NCBI GenBank assembly: GCA_016192455.1
Contig: JACPUC010000012.1
Coordinates: forward strand, 62,001-126,000
Direction of reading: 5' to 3'
DNA length: 64,000 bases
DNA from: Candidatus Tectimicrobiota bacterium
GTDB lineage: Bacteria > JACPUC01
Both the position numbers and the translations under genes were made by a program. Numbering within the stretch: position 1 is the stretch's first letter; each line of letters starts with the position of its first letter. The notes beneath the pieces were generated by a model. It worked only from the letters and a program-made list of their open reading frames with translations. It had not been told where the DNA came from and ran no database searches. Positions 47,048-57,499 of this stretch are shown here, in pieces.

Positions 47048-48082
47048 ATGTTGCCAGATGTCTCAGCAGAGCGCTTGGTCGCGATCGGGCGCCGGATGCT
47101 CCTCATCCGACGATTCGAGGAGCGCCTTATCACGCTCTTCCAAGACAAAGTCTTCGTCGGCCACTACCACGTCTACATCGGCCAGGAGGCCACCGGCGTG
47201 CCGGCCATCGCGCAGTTGCGCCCCGATGACTTCCTCTTCTCGACGCACCGCAACCACGGCCATAACCTGGCGCGCGGCGTTGACCCGAAGATGCTGCTGG
47301 CGGAGATCCTTGGGCGCGTCGGAGGGATGAGCCGGGGCAAGGCCGGCACCCTGCACCTGAGCGATCCGCAGCGCGGCATCTTCCACACCTCGGCGGTGGT
47401 CGGCGGCTCGATGCCGCTGGCGACCGGCGCCGCCCTGGCGGGGAAGCAGCTTGGCAAGCAGCAGGTGAGCGTCTGCCTCTTCGGCGATGGCGCCCTCGAG
47501 GAGGGAGCCGCCTACGAGGCGATGAACCTCGCCTCGCTCTGGAAGGTGCCGATCATCTTCATCTGCGAAAATAACTGCCTGGAGGCGCGCGAGGACATCC
47601 CCGGCGCCTGGCATACCACCTGCCTCACCACCCAGCGCCTCATCGACATCGCCGCGGCCCTTGGACACTCCACCGCGGCCATCGACGGCGGCGACGTGGG
47701 CGCGATGTGGTCGGCCATGTCGCAGGCGCTCGATCGAGTGCGCGGCGGCGAAGGCCCCTGCTTCATCGAAGCCGCCACCATCCGCTGGCCCGGCAACTTC
47801 GGCTTGTGGCCGGAGCTGCCGATGGGGCTGACGAATTTGGCCTGGGTCTGGGGCGCCGGCGAGGGCCCGGCAGCGTACGAGGGCTGGTTCCGCGAGCAGG
47901 ACCCCCTGCTGCGCTACCTGCGCGAGCTGCAGGCCGCCGGGATCGCCGATCGCGACACCATCTTGGCGTGGGATGAGGCGGTGAGGAAGGAGGTCGACGC
48001 GGCAGCGCAGTTCGCCCTCGGCAGTCCCTCACCCGAGCCGGCCGAAGCCCGGCGGCATGTCTTTGTGGAGGCCGGACGATGA
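47048..48082 (+). CDS. TPP-dependent dehydrogenase E1 alpha subunit-like
   Basis: HVYIGQEA, THRNHGH, GDGALEEG...ENN TPP motif. Confidence 0.9.
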   Translation: MLPDVSAERLVAIGRRMLLIRRFEERLITLFQDKVFVGHYHVYIGQEATGVPAIAQLRPDDFLFSTHRNHGHNLARGVDPKMLLAEILGRVGGMSRGKAGTLHLSDPQRGIFHTSAVVGGSMPLATGAALAGKQLGKQQVSVCLFGDGALEEGAAYEAMNLASLWKVPIIFICENNCLEAREDIPGAWHTTCLTTQRLIDIAAALGHSTAAIDGGDVGAMWSAMSQALDRVRGGEGPCFIEAATIRWPGNFGLWPELPMGLTNLAWVWGAGEGPAAYEGWFREQDPLLRYLRELQAAGIADRDTILAWDEAVRKEVDAAAQFALGSPSPEPAEARRHVFVEAGR

Positions 48083-49056
48083 GCGAAATGACTTACGCCG
48101 AGGCCAAGGCGGCTGCACTGCGGCAGGTTCTGGAAGAGGATGAGCGCGTCACCCTCATCGGTTCCTCCTTTTTCGGGTTGAGCCCTTTTCGGCGCCTCAC
48201 CGATAGCCTGCCGGCGGAATACCCGACGCGCGTCTACAAGATTCCCATCGCCGAACTGGGCGCCTGCGGCTGCGGGGTGGGGGCGGCAATGGCGGGGCTG
48301 CGTCCCATCGTGGACATCTCCACCGCCAGCTTCATTTTCGAAGCCTGGCCGCAGGTGGTGAACGAAGCCCCGCACGTGCACTACATGTCCGGCGGCCGCG
48401 CCCGGGCGCCGGTGGTCTTCCATGTCCTCCACGGCCTGCGCGGCGGCGGCGCGGCGCAGCACTCGCACAGCCCCCAGTCGATGCTCTGGAACACGCCGGG
48501 GCTGGAGATCGTGCTGCCGGCCTCGCCGGCCGACGTCAAGGGTCTGCTGATCAGCTCCGTGCGCAGCGATAACCCCACGGTCTTCCTGGATCAGCCGGTG
48601 CTCTTCGGCATGCGGGGCGAGGTGCCGGAGGGGGATGCCGCCATTCCCCTCGGCAAGGCCGAGGTCAAACGAGCGGGCAAGGATGTCACGGTGGTGGCCA
48701 CCTCGGCGGCGGTGCAGCAGTGCCTGAAGATTGCCGCGGCGTTGGCCGGCGAAGGGATCGACGTCGAGGTCGTGGACCCGCGCACCCTCGTCCCCTTCGA
48801 CGCGGAGACGATCTACGCCTCGGTCGGCAAGACCGGGCGGCTCGTCATCGTTGATGAGACGCACCAAAGCTGCGGCGTCGCCAGTGAGATCGCCGCGCGC
48901 GTCGCGGAGGAGGCCTTCGACGCCCTGCGCGGGCCGATCCGGCGGGTCTGCACGGAGGATGTGCCCATCCCCTTCGCGCCGGTGCTGGAGACGGCGATCA
49001 GCCCGAACGAGGAGAAGATCATCCGGGCCATCAAGCTGGCGGTGGGCGCCGCGTAG
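48079..49056 (+). CDS. TPP-dependent dehydrogenase E1 beta subunit-like
   Basis: PIAELG, GLRPIV, AAQHSHS, DPRTLVP, SVGKTGRL; ATGA coupling with alpha. Confidence 0.9.
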   Translation: MSEMTYAEAKAAALRQVLEEDERVTLIGSSFFGLSPFRRLTDSLPAEYPTRVYKIPIAELGACGCGVGAAMAGLRPIVDISTASFIFEAWPQVVNEAPHVHYMSGGRARAPVVFHVLHGLRGGGAAQHSHSPQSMLWNTPGLEIVLPASPADVKGLLISSVRSDNPTVFLDQPVLFGMRGEVPEGDAAIPLGKAEVKRAGKDVTVVATSAAVQQCLKIAAALAGEGIDVEVVDPRTLVPFDAETIYASVGKTGRLVIVDETHQSCGVASEIAARVAEEAFDALRGPIRRVCTEDVPIPFAPVLETAISPNEEKIIRAIKLAVGAA

Positions 49057-49312
49057 CAGGCTGGGGAGGTGGCCCGTCGGCTGGGAGAGAGCCTTGCCCA
49101 CGTGAAGTGGTCGGTGCCGGTCCATTCAGGTGGTGCATCCAGGCCGAAGCTTCCTGCTACGCTCGCCAGGTTCACGAAGGTTGCTCGAAGCGCACAATGT
49201 CAACCTACAAGGCTTGACCCTACGTATGCGCACACTGGGGTGACGCTTCGCTGGTTTCGAACACGTAACCGAAGGCGTTGAAGTCCTAGAGGCGATGGAG
49301 TAGGAGTCTTCA

Positions 49313-50205: not shown

Positions 50206-51495
50206 TCATGAACCGCGTGCTGCCGCGGCAGCGGTGGCGGCGGCCGCCACCGGGAGGATGGGGCTGACGGTGAAGCGCAGGGCGCGGTGGGCTTGGCGCA
50301 GAGCCTGCTCGACCTGCTGCGGCGAGTCGCCGCGGGCGAAGATGAAGCCGAGGTAGCTCCCCCCCTCCGGCAGCGGCAGGAGCGCCTGCGAGCTCTTCGC
50401 GGTGATGGTCACCTCGTCAATGCCGTCGACGGCGCGGGCGGCCTCAATCCCCTCCACCCGCTCGTAGATGCCGGGCCGTTCAATCGGCAGCATCATCACC
50501 CCGACGGCCCGATCCTCCCGCCGCGGCTCGATCTCCAGGCCGAGGGCGTGGCGGATGATGAGCTCCTCCAACGACATGCCGGTGCCGAAGCGCAGGGTGC
50601 GCGAGCAGAGTCCACCGATGGCGCGCGCGGCGATCTCGAGGATGCGCGGCCCCTGCGGCGTCAGGCGCAGCTCGGCGTGAATCGGTCCGCGCACGAGCCC
50701 CAGGGCGCGGCAGGCGCGGTCGACCTCCTTGACCATGGCGGCCTGCGTGGCCGCGTCTTCGCGTGACGGCGTGACGAAGAGCGTCTCCTCGAAGAACGGC
50801 CCCTCGAGCGGGTCGGGCTTGTCGAAGATCGCCAGGACGCGCAGCACGCCGTTGTCCAGCAACCCCTCCAGCGTCGCCTCGCGCCCCTCAAGGTAGCCCT
50901 CGACGAGAATCCAGTCGTCCGCCTCATCGCGCCGCACGCGCACCTCCGCGGTCCGCAGGAGCGCCGCAACGCGGCGGAAGGCGACGACGAACTCCGCCGG
51001 CCCGCCGGCCCGCACCACCCCGCGGCTGGCGGAGAGCGCCAACGGCTTCAGCACGCAGGGGTAGGCCACCTGGCGCGCGGCGTCCGCCGCATCGGCGTCC
51101 AGGGGGAAGCGCGCGAACGGCGGCACGCTCACGCCCGCGGCGCGCAGGAGCCGGCGCGCCAGGTACTTGTTGCGGCAGGCCGCGGCCGCGGTACTCGGGT
51201 TGTGGGGCAAGCCGAGCCGGGCGCTGGCCAGCGCCGCCGTGCGCACCGGCAGGTCGCCCACCGCCACGATGCCGTGGATGGGATGCTCGCGGGCGTACCG
51301 TTCGATGACGCGCGCCGCCGTCCGCGGTTGGTTGAACCGCAGCGCCAGGGCGCCATCGTGCCAGGGGTCGTCGAGGGAGTGGCAATGATCGGTGCCGAGG
51401 GTCACCGCCACGCCGAGCCGCTGGGCGGCGGCGGCGAAGTCGCGTCCCTCGTACCCCGTCGTGGCGAAGAGGAGGAGGAGCCGTTTCTCATCCAT
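50206..51495 (-). CDS. ATP-grasp protein, L-amino-acid-ligase-like
   Basis: CRNKY, YPCVLKP..LSASRGV, LVEGYLEG, HAELR, ILEIAAR..GG, C-terminal YLGFIFARG segment. Confidence 0.88.
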   Translation of the reverse strand: MDEKRLLLLFATTGYEGRDFAAAAQRLGVAVTLGTDHCHSLDDPWHDGALALRFNQPRTAARVIERYAREHPIHGIVAVGDLPVRTAALASARLGLPHNPSTAAAACRNKYLARRLLRAAGVSVPPFARFPLDADAADAARQVAYPCVLKPLALSASRGVVRAGGPAEFVVAFRRVAALLRTAEVRVRRDEADDWILVEGYLEGREATLEGLLDNGVLRVLAIFDKPDPLEGPFFEETLFVTPSREDAATQAAMVKEVDRACRALGLVRGPIHAELRLTPQGPRILEIAARAIGGLCSRTLRFGTGMSLEELIIRHALGLEIEPRREDRAVGVMMLPIERPGIYERVEGIEAARAVDGIDEVTITAKSSQALLPLPEGGSYLGFIFARGDSPQQVEQALRQAHRALRFTVSPILPVAAAATAAAAARGS

Positions 51496-51618
51496 GGCGC
51501 CGATCTTCCCGCGGGAACGTGAGGTCATCCTGATTGAGCCGGCAGCCATGCTACCCCGGCGCACCTAGGCCTCGGGCGTACCCGATCATCCCTCTGCTGC
51601 CAGTCGATCTCTACGCGG

Positions 51619-53034
51619 TTACAGGAGAGCTACCTGCTCTTCGGTCGGTTCAGCTCAGCAGTACCAGGGCTCGTTCAGGAAGGGGATGCCCTGCCTCAGC
51701 GTGCCGCGCATCGCCAGCGACGGCGGCGTCCGCCCCGCCGCCTCGTGGGCCGCCTGCCAGAGCTGCGCAAAGAGCCGCCGCCGCGTCAGGCCCTGCTGCT
51801 CCCCCTCCTTGACGAGCGCCTGCAGGGTCCAGCAGAGCGTATCCAGGCGGGGATCGCTGTGCGACCAGGGGTAGGAGAGGGAGTCGGGAGCAAAGTCGCC
51901 GACCAGGCGCTGCACCTCCTGCAGCTCCAACAGCCGCGACCCGGCAGGGAGGAGGAGACGCATGGCGAGCTGGATGGGCGCCACGTTCTCGACCAGGTCG
52001 AGCTCGACGAGCACCCGCAGGAGCTCCAGGTAGGTCTCGAAGGTCGTCCAGGGCGAGAAGGGAACGAAGGTCGGCGCCAGCGTCACCCCCGCCTCGCGGC
52101 AGCGCGCCGCCACGCGGTGGAAATCGTCGCGCGTATGCCCCTTGTCGAGGAGGCGGAGGAAACGATCATCGACCGACTCGACGGCGCTGGTCACGAAAGC
52201 GCAGCCGGTGCGGCGCAGCGTTTCGAGGTGCTCCGCATGCCGCAGCAGGTGCTGCACCTTGATCGTCACATCGTAGGTGAGGGCGGGGAACTCGTCGTGC
52301 AGCGCTTCCACCAGGGCCAGCGCGTGCCGCACGCCGTTGAAGAAGTCGGGATCGCCGAAAGTGAGGTGCCGCGCCCCCGCCGCCACCTGCTGCCGGATGT
52401 CGGCCAGGACCACCTGGCGCTGCACGATGCGGAACTGTCCGTTGTAGACGGGCACGATGGGGCAATGCCGGCAGCGGTGCTTGCAGCCGCGGCTCGCCTC
52501 GGTGTAGCCGGCGAGGCGCGTCTCGCCATCGGGGAGGAGGAGCTGGGCGTAGCGATGCAGGGGGGGCAGCCCACGGCGCTCGGGCACCTTGAAGGGGAGC
52601 TTGTCGAGGGAGATGACCGGCTCGCCCTGCGATTGGTCGCGGCGCGCGGCGCCCGGGGAGGCGCCGGCGAGACGCAGGCGCTCCACCATGCGCACCAGGC
52701 CGGGTTCGAACTCGCCGCCCAGGATGGTCTGCGCCCCGAGCCGCCTGAGGTACGCCTCGTTCATCGGCGCGTAGAGTCCGTAGAAGCAGAGGTGCGCGCG
52801 GGGATTGAGTTGCCTCACCCTGTCGAGCAGGCGCGCCGCCAGCTTGGTGGCGGTGTGCATCGGCACGTAGAAGGCCACCGCATCGGCACAACTCACCTCG
52901 TCCTCGCGCAGCGGCTCCTTCGCCAAGTCCTGGCAGGAGACGGCGACGCCCGCCTGCGTCAGCCACGCCGCGGGCGAGGCGAGGCCGAAGGGCTGGCGGC
53001 CGAGGTCGTAGGTGGAGATGAGGACAACCCGCAT
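51619..53034 (-). CDS. CUAEP-tail radical SAM selenoprotein (B12-binding-like N-domain); in-frame TGA at 51655-51657 read as Sec
   Basis: SRGCKHRCRHC motif. Past the TGA the frame continues AEPTEEQVALL-TAA, giving ...EPWYC-U-AEP...; SECIS-like hairpin follows. Confidence 0.88.
51626..51640 (-). promoter_or_regulatory. Putative bacterial SECIS hairpin
   Basis: mRNA reads UGA-N14-AGAGC-AGGUA-GCUCU, with apical GGU about 21-23 nt after the UGA. Shares GCAGGU with the E. coli fdhF SECIS as I recall it. Confidence 0.6.
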
Positions 53035-53106: not shown

Positions 53107-53412
53107 TTACATCTTGCCTTGCGGCGGCACATAGCCCGGCGGCAACGCGGCATCCTCGCCAAAGAAGAACTCTTCCATCTGAGAGAGGATGAGCTCGTCC
53201 GATTCAGGCTCCGACGGCGTGAGCCGATACTCATTGATGACCATGATGAGGAACTCCTTCCACATCTCCCACGCCCGCTGCGAGACGTTCTCGTAGATGC
53301 GCGCGGCCAGCTCTTCCGGAGCCATCAGCTTGACGATCTCGTAGGTCGTCTCATCAATGCCGGGGAGCTCTTCTGACAGCTTGATGCACTTCACCATGCG
53401 CGGCTCGGCCAT
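53107..53412 (-). CDS. yggX: Fe(II)-trafficking / oxidative damage protection protein (YggX-like)
   Basis: RMVKCIKL...RIYENVSQRAWEMW..MVINEYRL...GYVPP. Confidence 0.88.
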   Translation of the reverse strand: MAEPRMVKCIKLSEELPGIDETTYEIVKLMAPEELAARIYENVSQRAWEMWKEFLIMVINEYRLTPSEPESDELILSQMEEFFFGEDAALPPGYVPPQGKM

Positions 53413-53544
53413 ACCGTGTCTCCTTGTGGCGAAACCCTTGCGCCAACGACCATGCGAAGGCGGCCCATCCTGAGCTTCAGTATAGTACACGAGCGGGGGG
53501 GAACAAGCGCTTCTGCCGCCGCGATGTCGCGCCGCCCCGCCCCC

Positions 53545-54405
53545 TCAGCGGAAGAGCGTCACCAGGCTGGCGCCCAGCACGATCAGGCAGGTGGCGGCGA
53601 CCACCCGCGTCGTGATGAACTCGCTGTCGCGCAGCAGCAGGAGGCTGAGGACCATCGAGAAGAGCGGCGCGGTGTTCATGAGGGTGGTCACCACGATGAT
53701 GTTGCCGAGCTGCAAGGACTTGAAATTGGCGTAGACCGCGACCAGGGAGAAGACGCCGGCGCCGCTGAAATGCAGGAGACTCCGCCTGTCGCCGACGAGA
53801 CCGCGGCCGTGGCTGCGCAGCAGGGAGACGCCGACGAGGCAGAGCATGCCGCTCGTGATGGTGATCGCCGCGCCGGCCATGGCATGCGGGTAGAGCTGCA
53901 GGCCAAGCTGGCGGAGATTGACCGACACGCCGAAGGTCAGGGCCGAGAGAATCGGGAAGAGGAAGGCCGCCCGTTGCCTCCGGCCTTCCTCGCGTGGCGC
54001 CGTGAGCAGCGCCACGCCACCCACGCAGACGAGGGTCCCGAGCACCAGCGGCAGCCGCGCCGGCTCGCCGAACGCCGCGATGGCGACCAGCATGGTCACG
54101 ATCGGCATGGTGGCGATCACCGGGTGGGCGCGCGTGACGCCCAGCCGGGCGATGCCAAGGAAGCCGAAGTACCTCCCCAGCGCCGGCGAGAGCAACCCGG
54201 CGAGGATGAAGATGACGAGGGCCTTGGCGGGGATGCTGTCGATCCCACCCGTCCCCAGGAGGATCGACCAGTAGACGAGAATGTTCACGAAGGTGGAGAT
54301 GACCGTTGCGGAGATCGGTGAGGCGGTGCGCATGCCCCACTTGGCGAAGATGTTGCTGGCGCCGAACCCGAAGGCGCTGAGCAGGGCGAAGGCCACCGCG
54401 AGCAT
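53545..54405 (-). CDS. DMT/EamA family transporter
   Basis: About 10 TM helices in two repeats; start taken at MLAVAF. Confidence 0.85.
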   Translation of the reverse strand: MLAVAFALLSAFGFGASNIFAKWGMRTASPISATVISTFVNILVYWSILLGTGGIDSIPAKALVIFILAGLLSPALGRYFGFLGIARLGVTRAHPVIATMPIVTMLVAIAAFGEPARLPLVLGTLVCVGGVALLTAPREEGRRQRAAFLFPILSALTFGVSVNLRQLGLQLYPHAMAGAAITITSGMLCLVGVSLLRSHGRGLVGDRRSLLHFSGAGVFSLVAVYANFKSLQLGNIIVVTTLMNTAPLFSMVLSLLLLRDSEFITTRVVAATCLIVLGASLVTLFR

Positions 54406-54626
54406 GGTTGCCTCGACAGCGGAGAGCAGGGTGCGGCGCCGAGCGAGGCCGCGGAGGCGCCCGCGCGGCCGCCGGGCAGGCGAGCGCCGGTGGACCGCCG
54501 CGAAGTTTCGCGCCATACTTCCGGCCGGCGTTGCCGGCGACGGCCCCTGAAGGGGATCGGGGCGCCCCCCACCGGGCCGGGCAGCTCCGCAGGCCCGCCC
54601 GCCGCCCTCGGCCGCGAGGAGGTACG

Positions 54627-56018
54627 ATGACCGTCGATCTCGCCATTGTCAATGGTACGGTGGTCACACCCGCCGGCCCTCAGCCGCTCACGGTCGCGGT
54701 GCGCCAGGAACGTATCGTTGCCCTCAGCGATCGGGCGCATTGCCCCGCGGCGCGCGAGATCCTCGACGCGAGCGATCTGCACGTGCTTCCCGGGCTGGTG
54801 GAGGGGCACGTCCACTTCCGTGAACCGGGCCTGACTCAGAAGGAGGACTTCGGCAGCGGCTCGGCGGCCGCGGTCTGCGGCGGGGTGACGACGGTGATCG
54901 ACATGCCGAACACCGTGCCGCCCACCGCCGACGCGCAGAGCCTGCGGCAAAAGCAAGCCCTGGCGGAGGCCAAGTCGTTGGTTGATTTCGGGCTGCTGGG
55001 GGTCATCCTGCCGAACAACCTGCGGCAGCTCCGCGGCCTGGTGGAGGCCGGCGCCCTGGGGTTGAAGGTCTTCATGGGGATGACGGTGGGCAATCTGCCG
55101 GCGCCCGAGGACGGCGACATCCTCGAGGCCTGGAGGCTGGCCGCAGAGCTGGGAATTCCGGTGGCGGTGCACGCCGAGAGCAGCGTCCTTGTGCACCACT
55201 GCACCGAACGGCTGCGCGCCGGCGGCCGCAGCGACGCCCTGGCGCACTATGAAGCCCGCCCCGAGATCGCCGAAGAGGAGGCGATCCAGCGCGCCATCCT
55301 CCTGGCGGCGGCGGCGGGCGCGCGCCTGCACGTCCTGCACGTCAGCACGGCCCAGGGGGCGGCGCTGGTGGGGGCGGCGAAACGCCGCGGCGGCGCGGTG
55401 AGCGCCGAGACGACGCCGCACTACCTGCTCTTGCAGAGCGCCGACGCCGCGCGCCTCGGCAACACCATGAAGATCAACCCGCCGGTGCGCGCCGCCGGCC
55501 ACGCGGAGCAGCTCTGGCAGGCCCTGCGGGGCGGCGCGATTGACAGCATCGCCACCGACCACGCTCCCCACCTGCCGGAAGAGAAGCGCCGGCGGAACGT
55601 CTGGGAGGCCCCGTCGGGGTTCCCCGGCGTGGAGACAGCCCTCCCCCTCATGCTCACCCAGGTGAACGCCGGGCGCATGCGCCTCGAGGAGTACGTGCGC
55701 TGGCACTGCGAGAACCCGGCGCGCATCTGGGGACTCTACCCCCGCAAAGGGGTGATCCAGGTCGGCAGCGACGCCGACCTGACCCTCGTCGATCTCTCCC
55801 GCCGCGACGTCATCAGGGCGGCGAACCTGCACAGCAAGAGCAAGGTAACGCCCTATGAGGGGTGGGAGGTGCAAGGCGTGCCGGTCTGCACCCTGGTGCG
55901 GGGCCAGATCGTCATGCGGGAGGGACAGCTCGTGGGCAGGCCGCGGGGACGGATGCTCTGGCCAAGCCGCGAGGCAAGGGCGGGCAGGGCCTCTGATGAC
56001 GCCGCGCGACTCGCATGA
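54627..56018 (+). CDS. Allantoinase/dihydroorotase-family cyclic amidohydrolase
   Basis: [51 protein letters not shown]. Confidence 0.9.
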   Translation: MTVDLAIVNGTVVTPAGPQPLTVAVRQERIVALSDRAHCPAAREILDASDLHVLPGLVEGHVHFREPGLTQKEDFGSGSAAAVCGGVTTVIDMPNTVPPTADAQSLRQKQALAEAKSLVDFGLLGVILPNNLRQLRGLVEAGALGLKVFMGMTVGNLPAPEDGDILEAWRLAAELGIPVAVHAESSVLVHHCTERLRAGGRSDALAHYEARPEIAEEEAIQRAILLAAAAGARLHVLHVSTAQGAALVGAAKRRGGAVSAETTPHYLLLQSADAARLGNTMKINPPVRAAGHAEQLWQALRGGAIDSIATDHAPHLPEEKRRRNVWEAPSGFPGVETALPLMLTQVNAGRMRLEEYVRWHCENPARIWGLYPRKGVIQVGSDADLTLVDLSRRDVIRAANLHSKSKVTPYEGWEVQGVPVCTLVRGQIVMREGQLVGRPRGRMLWPSREARAGRASDDAARLA

Positions 56019-56080
56019 ATGTCGCAGCGCTGCCGTCGACCGGAGGGATTCCGCCGGCAGCGGCGCCTCGCGCGACTGCC

Positions 56081-57499
56081 TTACGCCGACGTGGATGCGG
56101 AGATCGAGGCTGCTTCGCGCAGTCGATTCACGCAGTCGAGGGCGGCCACCTTGTAGCACTCCGCCAGGGTGGGGTAGTTGAAGACCATGGTGAGGAAGTA
56201 GTCGATCGTCCCCTGGAAGTACATCACCGCCTGACCGATGTGGATGATCTCCGTGGTGCCGGTGCCGATGCCGTGCACCGCGAGGAGGCGCCGCGTGTCC
56301 TGGTGCACGAGGACTTTCAGCATCCCCACGTCCTCGCCGAGGAGCTGGCCGCGGGCGATCTCGCGGTAGCGGGCCCGGCCTTGCTCGTAGGGCACTCGCG
56401 CCTTGGTGAGCTGCTCCTCCGTGGGGCCGATCATGGAGATTTCGGGGATCGTGTAGATGCCGAAGGGGAGCAGCTCGGGCGTCGAGGCGCACTGCTCGCC
56501 GAAGGCGTGGCAACTGGCCAGGCGGCCCTGCTCCATGGCCGTGGCGGCCAGGCTCGGGAAACCGATGACGTCCCCGGCGGCATAGATGGTGGGGACGCTC
56601 GTCTGGTAACACTCGTTGACCTTGATGCGGCCGCGCTCGTCGACCTCGATGCCCACCTTCTCCAAGCCCAGGCCGTCGATGGCGCCGGTCCGTCCCACCG
56701 CGTACAGCGCCGTGTGGGCGGTGATGCGCTTGCCGCTCAGCAGCTCGGCGACGACGCGGCGCTCGGCGCTCTTCGCCAAGCTCGCCACCTCCTCGCCCAG
56801 CAGCAGGGTCACCCCTTTCTGGCGCATGTGGTAGGAGAGCGCTTCAGAGATCTCGAGGTCAAGGAAACCGAGCAGGCGCGCCGACCGTTCCACCAGGGTG
56901 ACCTTGACACCGAGGGCGGCGAACATACTGGCGTACTCAGCGCCCACGATGCCGCCGCCGATCACCAGGAGGGTCGGCGGAATTTCCGCCAGGTGCAGGA
57001 TGCCCTTCGAGTCGACGATGATCTCATCATCGAAGGGGATATGGCTGGGTCGGGTGGGGCTGCTGCCGGTGGCGATGACGATGAAGTCGGTGCTGCAGCG
57101 ACGGTCTCCATCACCGCTTTCGATAAAGAGGGTATGGGGGTCGATGAGGGCGGCGGCGCCGTAGATCACCTCAACGTTGTTGCGGGTGAGCTGCGACCGC
57201 ACCACGGCGATCTCGTTGCGGATCACCTGCTCGCAGCGCGCCAGGAGGTCCGCCATCGCGATGCGCCGTTTCAGAATAAGGTTGGAGTCGTAGAAGGAGC
57301 GCTCGCGCAGCCCAGCCAGATAGATCACCGCTTCGCGCAGGCTCTTGCTGGGGATGGTGCCGGTGTTGATGCAGACGCCGCCGACGACGTGCTGGCGCTC
57401 GATGACCGCCACACTCTTGCCGAGCTTCGCCGCCTGAATCGCGGCTTTCTGACCGCCCGGCCCGCTGCCGATGACGACAAGATCATAGTGCTGAAGCAC
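56081..57499 (-). CDS. sthA: Soluble pyridine nucleotide transhydrogenase
   Basis: GSGPGG, GGVCINTGTIPSK (CxxxxT), GDVIGFPSLA, FNYPTLAECYKVAALD. Confidence 0.93.
   Translation of the reverse strand: MLQHYDLVVIGSGPGGQKAAIQAAKLGKSVAVIERQHVVGGVCINTGTIPSKSLREAVIYLAGLRERSFYDSNLILKRRIAMADLLARCEQVIRNEIAVVRSQLTRNNVEVIYGAAALIDPHTLFIESGDGDRRCSTDFIVIATGSSPTRPSHIPFDDEIIVDSKGILHLAEIPPTLLVIGGGIVGAEYASMFAALGVKVTLVERSARLLGFLDLEISEALSYHMRQKGVTLLLGEEVASLAKSAERRVVAELLSGKRITAHTALYAVGRTGAIDGLGLEKVGIEVDERGRIKVNECYQTSVPTIYAAGDVIGFPSLAATAMEQGRLASCHAFGEQCASTPELLPFGIYTIPEISMIGPTEEQLTKARVPYEQGRARYREIARGQLLGEDVGMLKVLVHQDTRRLLAVHGIGTGTTEIIHIGQAVMYFQGTIDYFLTMVFNYPTLAECYKVAALDCVNRLREAASISASTSA

Follow-up and report, generated by a model that had tools for sequence, protein, structure and literature searches.

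The window analysed here, a stretch of 64,000 nucleotides from a Candidatus Tectimicrobiota bacterium (contig JACPUC010000012.1), carries on its minus strand a gene for a radical S-adenosylmethionine (SAM) enzyme whose apparent stop codon, UGA, is very probably decoded as selenocysteine (Sec, U) by SelB and tRNA-Sec. Read in this way, the enzyme would extend into a tail ...E-P-W-Y-C-U-A-E-P-T..., in which Cys459 and Sec at residue 460 form a vicinal pair. A preliminary description of the window, made from its letters alone, had proposed a hidden selenoprotein at this site. We assign the favoured explanation as a whole a probability of about 0.85. The elements of the gene are as follows.

51619..53034, minus strand: predicted CUAEP-tail radical SAM selenoprotein, full coding region (471 aa, U460; ATG at 53034)
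51655..51657, minus strand: UGA, probably read as Sec, residue 460, directly after Cys459 (TGA/Cys alternation in homologues)
51619..51621, minus strand: probable true stop TAA (sequence reading)
51626..51640, minus strand: hairpin resembling a selenocysteine insertion sequence (SECIS), 5 bp, loop AGGUA with G24 (nucleotides 18-22 pair with 28-32, the U of UGA being 1)
52462..52485, minus strand: radical SAM cluster motif CxxxCxxC (C184-x3-C188-x2-C191)

Probable selenocysteine codon in the tail of the radical SAM enzyme

The open reading frame (ORF) 53034-51658 on the minus strand ends in ...PWYC followed by TGA, and eleven sense codons (AEPTEEQVALL) continue in frame to a TAA. The minus strand reads TGG TAC TGC TGA GCT GAA CCG ACC GAA GAG CAG GTA GCT CTC CTG TAA, which matches exactly the codon string (W-Y-C-*-A-E-P-...-stop) of the preliminary description. 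Translation table 11 gives a product of 459 aa ending at the TGA, and 471 aa are obtained when the TGA is read as U. The protein is a member of the NCBIfam family NF040546, "CUAEP/CCAEP-tail radical SAM (seleno)protein", to which it had been assigned beforehand; the read-through form matches profile positions 1-467 of 468 with 629.2 bits, the curated cut-off being 500 bits. For the truncated form the match spans positions 1-457 and reaches 606.8 bits, so that the read-through gains 22 bits and profile positions 458-467. A profile search of its own genome with NF040546 returned 622.6 bits with one TGA within the match. The protein shares with the other family members the full-length match, the CxxxCxxC motif, the E-P-W-Y-C-U-A-E-P-T tail and the TGA at U. 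It lacks no defining trait of the family and differs from the other members in its weak 5-bp SECIS stem and in having the gene yggX upstream on the same strand, not downstream and convergent.

Homologous loci were analysed in two sets. Set 1 comprises the best 80 genome loci of at least 595 confirmed (600 pattern matches), and set 2 comprises 80 metagenome loci of at least 580 confirmed, which were seeded with distant family members and represent a more distant clade; 78 tails of set 2 are readable, two contigs stopping before the tail. Of the 158 readable loci, 120 have TGA directly after W[YF]C and 38 have TGC or TGT, and TAA or TAG never occurs there. The 80 loci of set 1 have TGA in 51, TGC in 22, TGT in seven and TAA or TAG in none, followed by AEP in 79 and VEP in one, and the 78 of set 2 have TGA in 69, TGC in six and TGT in three, followed by AEP in 76 and by TEP and SEP in one each. 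Alignment of the homologue C-termini, a check proposed in the preliminary description, thus finds [A/V/T/S]EP after TGA, TGC or TGT in 158/158 loci. Since conservation at the protein level continues past a codon that alternates only with Cys codons, this pattern is the signature of Sec. Eleven residues follow U in the window protein and up to about 50 in the homologues; the short tail type of the window (11 residues after U) is common to two set-1 loci (L023 and L049) and Methylomirabilota-like loci.

The truncation by gene callers that the preliminary description anticipated is widespread. Among the 119 best database homologues (59-67% identity), 107 stop exactly at EPW[YF]C and 12 run on as CCAEPT..., and the window's own protein is deposited in the 459-aa form. 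The word "hidden", on the other hand, holds for ab initio gene callers only, since the word (seleno)protein is already part of the name that NCBI's curated model gives to the family. The same truncation is found in a cultured organism: on the Thermomicrobium roseum DSM 5159 megaplasmid (NC_011961.1, 7935-9440; L117) the CDS record ends at a TGA, past which AEP and 20 more sense codons follow, with a GGACCC/GGGUCC hairpin at the family's usual position. The neighbours of the T. roseum gene are a pyridoxal-phosphate-dependent aminotransferase and a major facilitator superfamily transporter, with no ATP-grasp ligase, and selB was not found on that replicon.

The 5-bp hairpin with an AGGUA loop that had been described 14 nt after the TGA is present, formed by the pairs A18-U32, G19-C31, A20-U30, G21-C29 and C22-G28. 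Like a bacterial SECIS, it is a stem-loop at a short fixed distance 3' of the UGA with a G in its apical loop. In the homologues the hairpin occurs in two registers, an AGUU-loop class of 40 sequences and an AGGUN-loop class of 12 sequences to which the window belongs; G24 is invariant, and the 5' arm ends 22 nt from the U of UGA. In the AGUU class, 83.2% of cells pair, compared with 34.8-58.2% when the partners are slid, and 19 cells show double changes, a number reached by 0/500 shuffles; in the AGGUN class 94.4% of cells pair, compared with 41.7-62.5% when slid, but these pairing controls are not probabilities, the hairpin region being also coding. Pair 18-31 of the AGUU class is GC in 26 sequences, AU in seven and CG in three, and pair 18-32 of the AGGUN class is GC in seven, AU in three (window included) and GU in two, so that A18-U32 of the window is a compensatory variant of G-C.

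The hairpin is specific to the TGA forms. The mean local minimum free energy (MFE) of nucleotides 12-38 is -10.87 kcal/mol in 51 TGA sequences (50 loci and the window) and -4.43 kcal/mol in 29 Cys sequences (Mann-Whitney p 2e-12). Loop G24 comes from a Gln codon, for which 51/51 TGA forms use CAG; the Cys forms have CAG in 21, CAA in seven and GAA in one. The Asp codon is likewise GAC in 33 and GAT in none of the TGA forms, and GAT in nine and GAC in four of the Cys forms. Such a contrast between sequences encoding the same peptide is otherwise hard to explain. As in SECIS elements of the fdhF type, the hairpin lies inside the coding region shortly past the UGA and has a G in its loop; the fdhF-type element is a stem-loop shortly after the UGA with G/U in the apical loop. 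The family hairpin differs from that type in being very short (5-7 bp), in being built from codons of the conserved tail and in having no Rfam match.

Taken by itself, the window's hairpin is not significant. It is at the weak end of the family, with 5 bp and a local MFE (nucleotides 12-38) of -6.9 kcal/mol; the 76-nt fold is no better than that of shuffles (z +1.64; 192/200 shuffles fold at least as well); and the SECIS region has no Rfam match at E up to 10, nor did a scan of the whole window at gathering thresholds return anything relevant. The hairpin gains its significance because it stands at the same place in the TGA homologues and has decayed in the Cys ones.

The genome of the window (31 contigs, 88% complete) encodes the machinery for Sec, as a look-up of selA, selB, selC and selD proposed in the preliminary description reveals: selA (596 bits) with an adjacent selB (366 bits), selD (389 bits) and tRNA-Sec (75.5 bits), whose anticodon is given by ARAGORN as tca (UCA). 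The selD gene (G000:C3:190907-191827) has one in-frame TGA and is thus itself a probable selenoprotein gene, and a small ferredoxin-like ORF (G000:C15:107513-107698), also with one in-frame TGA, is a further candidate. Among the window ORFs of at least 250 aa with a G+C content at third codon positions (GC3) above 0.75 (n = 44), the stop is TGA in 20, TAG in 15 and TAA in nine, and many of the homologue extensions themselves end in TGA. A reassigned genetic code is therefore excluded.

The alternative that the TGA is a real stop, an assembly error or a lesion in a pseudogene, and that the enzyme ends at Cys459, is very improbable. The 459-aa product still scores 606.8 bits with the family profile and the hairpin alone is not significant, as a real stop would allow. 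However, conservation at the protein level extends over the eleven codons past the TGA in 158 loci, the TGA alternates with Cys codons only, the SECIS hairpin covaries with the TGA, and the genome has the Sec machinery. Matches to the gene were found among the contigs assembled from four DNA runs. One contig, from a further run of the study that produced the source, is identical and spans the site, but is not independent; the site is also covered by contigs of two other studies that are 92-93% alike. Among the matches listed there is no alternative letter at 51655-51657, from which we draw no conclusion. The homologue tails, the SECIS-like hairpin and the Sec machinery support the 471-aa product with a vicinal Cys-Sec pair set out in the preliminary description. 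The codon is almost certainly a Sec codon, as certain as sequence analysis allows, and we infer that Sec is actually inserted.

Linked genes in the window and across homologous loci

Four minus-strand genes lie head to tail in the window, encoding an EamA/DMT transporter, YggX, the radical SAM enzyme and an ATP-grasp protein. The three neighbours of the radical SAM gene are as follows.

50206..51564, minus strand: ATP-grasp enzyme of the L-amino-acid-ligase type, downstream (Pfam ATP-grasp_4, LAL_C2 and ATPgrasp_N)
53107..53490, minus strand: YggX-type Fe(2+)-trafficking protein, upstream (PF04362 86.7 bits, NF003817 90.7 bits; PDB 2MZY and 1T07)
53545..54516, minus strand: EamA/DMT-family transporter, upstream of yggX (PF00892 87.4 bits, GC3 0.90)

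No terminator-like site was found between the minus-strand genes of this group in the window, and the radical SAM gene is probably co-transcribed with the upstream yggX and the downstream ATP-grasp gene. The closest solved structure to the ATP-grasp enzyme is that of BL00235 (3VOT, E 1.3e-42), an enzyme for which the available part of the source (PMC6920838, Table 2) reports the synthesis of Met-Gly and Met-Met. The transporter is a possible exporter of the operon product; no EamA homologue was found near the radical SAM gene in the other loci of sets 1 and 2. Neighbours in the window also include a CBS protein and an amidohydrolase. The ORFs 53477-54667(-), 54285-56612(-), 47914-49125(-) and 53416-54321(+) have no family matches and low GC3, and were set aside as shadow frames that overlap real genes in another frame or on the opposite strand.

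Linkage was counted in the loci with enough flank, which are 64 of 79 in set 1 (15 dropped, and L089 left out) and 40 of 78 in set 2. Neighbours in set 2 were identified by BLASTP comparison with reference proteins; one Nfu representative was checked in Pfam. Several neighbour assignments rest on BLASTP to a single Pfam-checked representative. In set 1 the ATP-grasp ligase is linked in 53/64 loci and YggX in 46/64, all 46 of which have the ligase too. Set 2 has YggX in 15/40 loci and a NifU-domain protein in 11/40, either of them in 26/40 and both in 0/40, together with the ligase in 11/40, DUF169 in five, HgcAB-like proteins in two and CpaM in one. Three set-1 loci without YggX (L029, L047 and L071) carry an NfuA-like protein (Fe-S_biosyn and NifU domains) between the ligase and the radical SAM gene. 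The yggX gene usually lies downstream of the ligase gene and convergent, and is found upstream on the same strand in the window and in two other loci (L024 and L034); since the linkage survives this rearrangement, it is meaningful. Among the neighbours, a protein of the YggX or NifU type for iron or iron-sulfur delivery is thus the most constant, and the ligase comes second.

Other linked genes are less frequent. DUF169 is encoded directly after the radical SAM gene in eight set-1 loci, and in ten in all. Two loci, L058 (8375-11279) and L054 (8378-11252), show the order radical SAM (TGA), DUF169, CpaM and an HgcAB-like fusion; the L058 proteins score 244.9 bits with NF043040 and 332.2 bits with NF043039, both above the cut-off, and those of L054 were assigned by their 63-65% identity to the L058 proteins. 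These two loci connect a CUAEP enzyme with a paralogue of the system for mercury methylation, CpaM being a corrinoid-protein-associated methyltransferase. An aconitase gene is divergently transcribed about 100 bp upstream of the radical SAM start in 43/79 set-1 loci, mostly of Acidobacteriota; this adjacency is probably lineage synteny, and it fits an iron or oxidative-stress theme.

Two groups of candidates were rejected. A search for divergent ligases in seven ligase-less loci found unrelated downstream ORFs (oxidoreductase, glutamate-synthase domain, integrase, arginase, aminotransferase, deacetylase and one unknown), and the formyltransferase, enoyl-CoA hydratase, AtuA and subtilase genes in set 2 are lineage-specific housekeeping neighbours.

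Relation to ArsL and possible chemistry of the Cys-Sec tail

The next family after NF040546 is that of ArsL, the enzyme to which the preliminary description had related the window protein. The score with the ArsL model NF040542 is 287.7 bits, below its cut-off of 450 bits, so that the protein is not itself an ArsL; it shares 35% identity with a Priestia RCCLKC-tail protein over 420 residues. The relation proposed earlier is confirmed, ArsL being a sister family. According to the accessible parts of two preprints (bioRxiv 10.1101/2024.02.01.577332; 10.64898/2026.04.29.721666), ArsL cleaves SAM to 5'-methylthioadenosine and a 3-amino-3-carboxypropyl (ACP) radical, and joins the ACP moiety to As(III) held by the three Cys residues of RCCLKC; the 2026 preprint, in the same parts, describes it as the sole radical SAM enzyme of canonical fold for which formation of the ACP radical is known. 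Like the window protein, ArsL has an N-terminal Rossmann-like domain, a radical SAM core and a Cys-rich C-terminal tail. The window protein differs in having the tail CU-AEP with two adjacent chalcogens instead of the three-Cys RCCLKC tail, in about 45 extra residues before the tail, and in lacking the arsenic-operon context (arsM, arsQ, ArsR) at its locus.

The Priestia megaterium plasmid NZ_CP064271.1 (1483-6275; L118) has its RCCLKC-tail radical SAM gene in an arsenic island with ArsR, aquaporin, ArsI and ArsN1. An ATP-grasp protein encoded 2.3 kb upstream of that gene is 27% identical over 240 residues to the window ligase, and ArsL-family loci may also pair with an ATP-grasp ligase.

Conservation within the family is concentrated in the tail. 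The CxxxCxxC positions are Cys in 119-120/120 close homologues and in 60/60 diverse ones, and beyond this motif the conserved residues across the 60 diverse members are those of the tail E-x-W-[FY]-C-[C/U]-A-E-P only. C34, C83 and C278 are invariant in close relatives but are Cys in only 18, 21 and 41 of the 60 diverse members, respectively, and are absent from the Priestia RCCLKC-tail protein. Pfam finds only the Radical_SAM domain (PF04055, 51.8 bits). An AlphaFold2 model built with 120 sequences has a mean predicted local distance difference test score (pLDDT) of 90.6, and its Foldseek neighbours AprD4, OxsB, TsrM, MgmA, MiaB and RimO combine an N-terminal Rossmann-like domain with a radical SAM core.

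Given the relation to ArsL and the tail-only conservation beyond CxxxCxxC, an ArsL-like ACP transfer is the simplest model. We consider it possible, though tentative, that the enzyme passes the ACP radical on to an atom bound by the Cys-Sec pair and that the ligase extends the product. The enzyme would cleave SAM at the C-gamma-S bond to generate the ACP radical, which would be coupled to a soft atom carried on the Cys-Sec tail; this atom may be a metal or metalloid, or else sulfur or selenium supplied as a persulfide or an iron-sulfur cluster. The product would be a methionine-like 2-amino-4-X-butanoate that the neighbouring ligase could join to a second amino acid, while the YggX or NifU-type partner may keep the iron-sulfur chemistry of the enzyme supplied.

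The nature of the acceptor atom is suggested in two directions. Binding of a soft metal or metalloid by the Cys-Sec pair, as put forward in the preliminary description, is conceivable by analogy with ArsL and with other proteins that have a CU motif; the HgcAB-like, CpaM and DUF169 contexts, together with the CU motif of metal-handling proteins, point to a metal or metalloid. On the other hand, sulfur or selenium delivered by iron-sulfur chemistry is suggested by the almost universal YggX or Nfu partner and by the relation of the ligase to a Met-specific enzyme. The Cys-Cys/Cys-Sec metal-handling proteins (HgcA, HgcB, SAO-locus proteins and MerT) have in common with the window protein the rare CU dipeptide near the C-terminus. 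They show no sequence homology to it, however, and mercury or SAO genes are absent from the window and do not score above cut-off in the genome. MerA, too, ends in a C-terminal CC.

Several observations do not favour the ArsL-like chemistry. Two chalcogen ligands are conserved family-wide, compared with the three-Cys arsenic site of ArsL, and the tail (residues 441-471) is poorly modelled, with a pLDDT of just 53-66. The ligase partner is absent in 11/64 set-1 and 29/40 set-2 loci, and is therefore not obligatory. No ars genes or methyltransferase adjoin the radical SAM gene in the window, and a search of the 88% complete genome found neither DUF169 nor an HgcAB-like protein above cut-off, only ferredoxin-domain matches below it. 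The family is spread widely and in synteny beside housekeeping genes such as that for aconitase, which is more in keeping with a core function than with an antibiotic pathway.

A somewhat unlikely alternative is that the Cys-Sec pair forms a redox-active tail, cycling between selenol/thiol and selenenylsulfide as in thioredoxin reductase and quenching a product radical with a donated hydrogen atom or electrons, perhaps in an enzyme that uses the 5'-deoxyadenosyl radical. Sec-for-Cys exchange is typical of redox sites, and apart from the cluster ligands the vicinal Cys-Sec or Cys-Cys is the one chalcogen pair that the family conserves. The low pLDDT of the modelled tail would agree with the flexible C-terminal extension on which thioredoxin reductase, too, carries an adjacent Cys-Sec, and the nearest solved folds (AprD4, OxsB, TsrM, MgmA and MiaB) mostly use chemistries other than ACP transfer. 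Thioredoxin reductase, however, is a flavoprotein with the C-terminus -Gly-Cys-Sec-Gly. In the window protein, which has a radical SAM fold, the pair is not followed by the single Gly of GCUG but by AEPTxxQ and, in the family, 11-50 residues; the motif E-x-W-[FY]-C-[CU]-A-E-P-T-x-x-Q is long, conserved and not at the extreme C-terminus. No conserved reductase partner was found nearby, and ArsL, the closest characterised relative, binds its acceptor with its Cys tail and makes the ACP radical, as far as the available preprint text goes.

A still less probable reading is that the tail binds an additional iron-sulfur cluster, auxiliary or inter-subunit, to which each of two subunits contributes two ligands and which is consumed as a sulfur donor like those of LipA, BioB and MiaB. 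Such a sacrificial cluster would explain why a gene for iron or iron-sulfur delivery almost always adjoins: YggX or Nfu is linked in 46/64 set-1 loci plus the three with an NfuA-like protein, and in 26/40 of set 2, the two types being mutually exclusive. NfuA re-supplies the sacrificial clusters in LipA and MiaB, and MiaB and RimO are among the structural neighbours of the enzyme. However, only two ligands are conserved per chain, Sec would be an unusual cluster ligand, and the ArsL tail binds no extra cluster according to the accessible parts of its description.

The broadest form of the ArsL-like proposal is that the CUAEP/CCAEP enzymes are a second and far larger branch of "non-canonical" radical SAM enzymes of the ArsL type, which places the ACP group on tail-held sulfur or selenium, drawn from an iron-sulfur species that YggX or Nfu services, or on a soft metal or metalloid, and passes a Met-like product on to a dipeptide. 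We regard this as rather doubtful at present. The family comprises 623 clusters (50% identity, E<=1e-30), compared with the 147 ArsL-family sequences quoted in the available part of the literature. If the proposal were true, a widespread small-molecule pathway would have gone unrecognised in soil and groundwater bacteria.

Curation status and distribution of the family

The family and its Sec site are already curated in the NCBIfam name, and several NCBI records are so named; the finding is chiefly an annotation correction. The gene should gain 12 codons and the label of a selenoprotein, and the same applies to most database homologues and to the T. roseum record. In the literature searched, "CUAEP" or "CCAEP" in this sense occurs only in Haft & Gwadz (bioRxiv 10.1101/2022.07.06.499078), the accessible portion of which names the family as uncharacterised, its structure and function being not well known, and lists it beside the HgcA, HgcB, SAO-locus and MerT CU/CC proteins. 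That portion of the preprint contains no mention of ATP-grasp, DUF169 or CpaM, and neither the neighbourhood nor the SECIS patterns were found in print in the literature searched. The present analysis adds a conserved gene neighbourhood and a family-wide SECIS consensus for a family of considerable size, as the loci confirmed in the two scans also indicate. The CUAEP/CCAEP family is functionally uncharacterised and is the closest relative of ArsL found in these searches, and its linked genes offer leads on function: the ligase, the mutually exclusive YggX and NifU-type proteins, the occasional DUF169 and the rare HgcAB-like corrinoid system.

No RNA run is among the sequencing runs listed for the stretch; the DNA runs that contain it are labelled groundwater metagenomes. 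The source genome seems to have no near kin among the species representatives compared. Forty genomes were offered as relatives, all at the level of "same domain" only, and a member of the family, again with TGA, is present in one of the 40.

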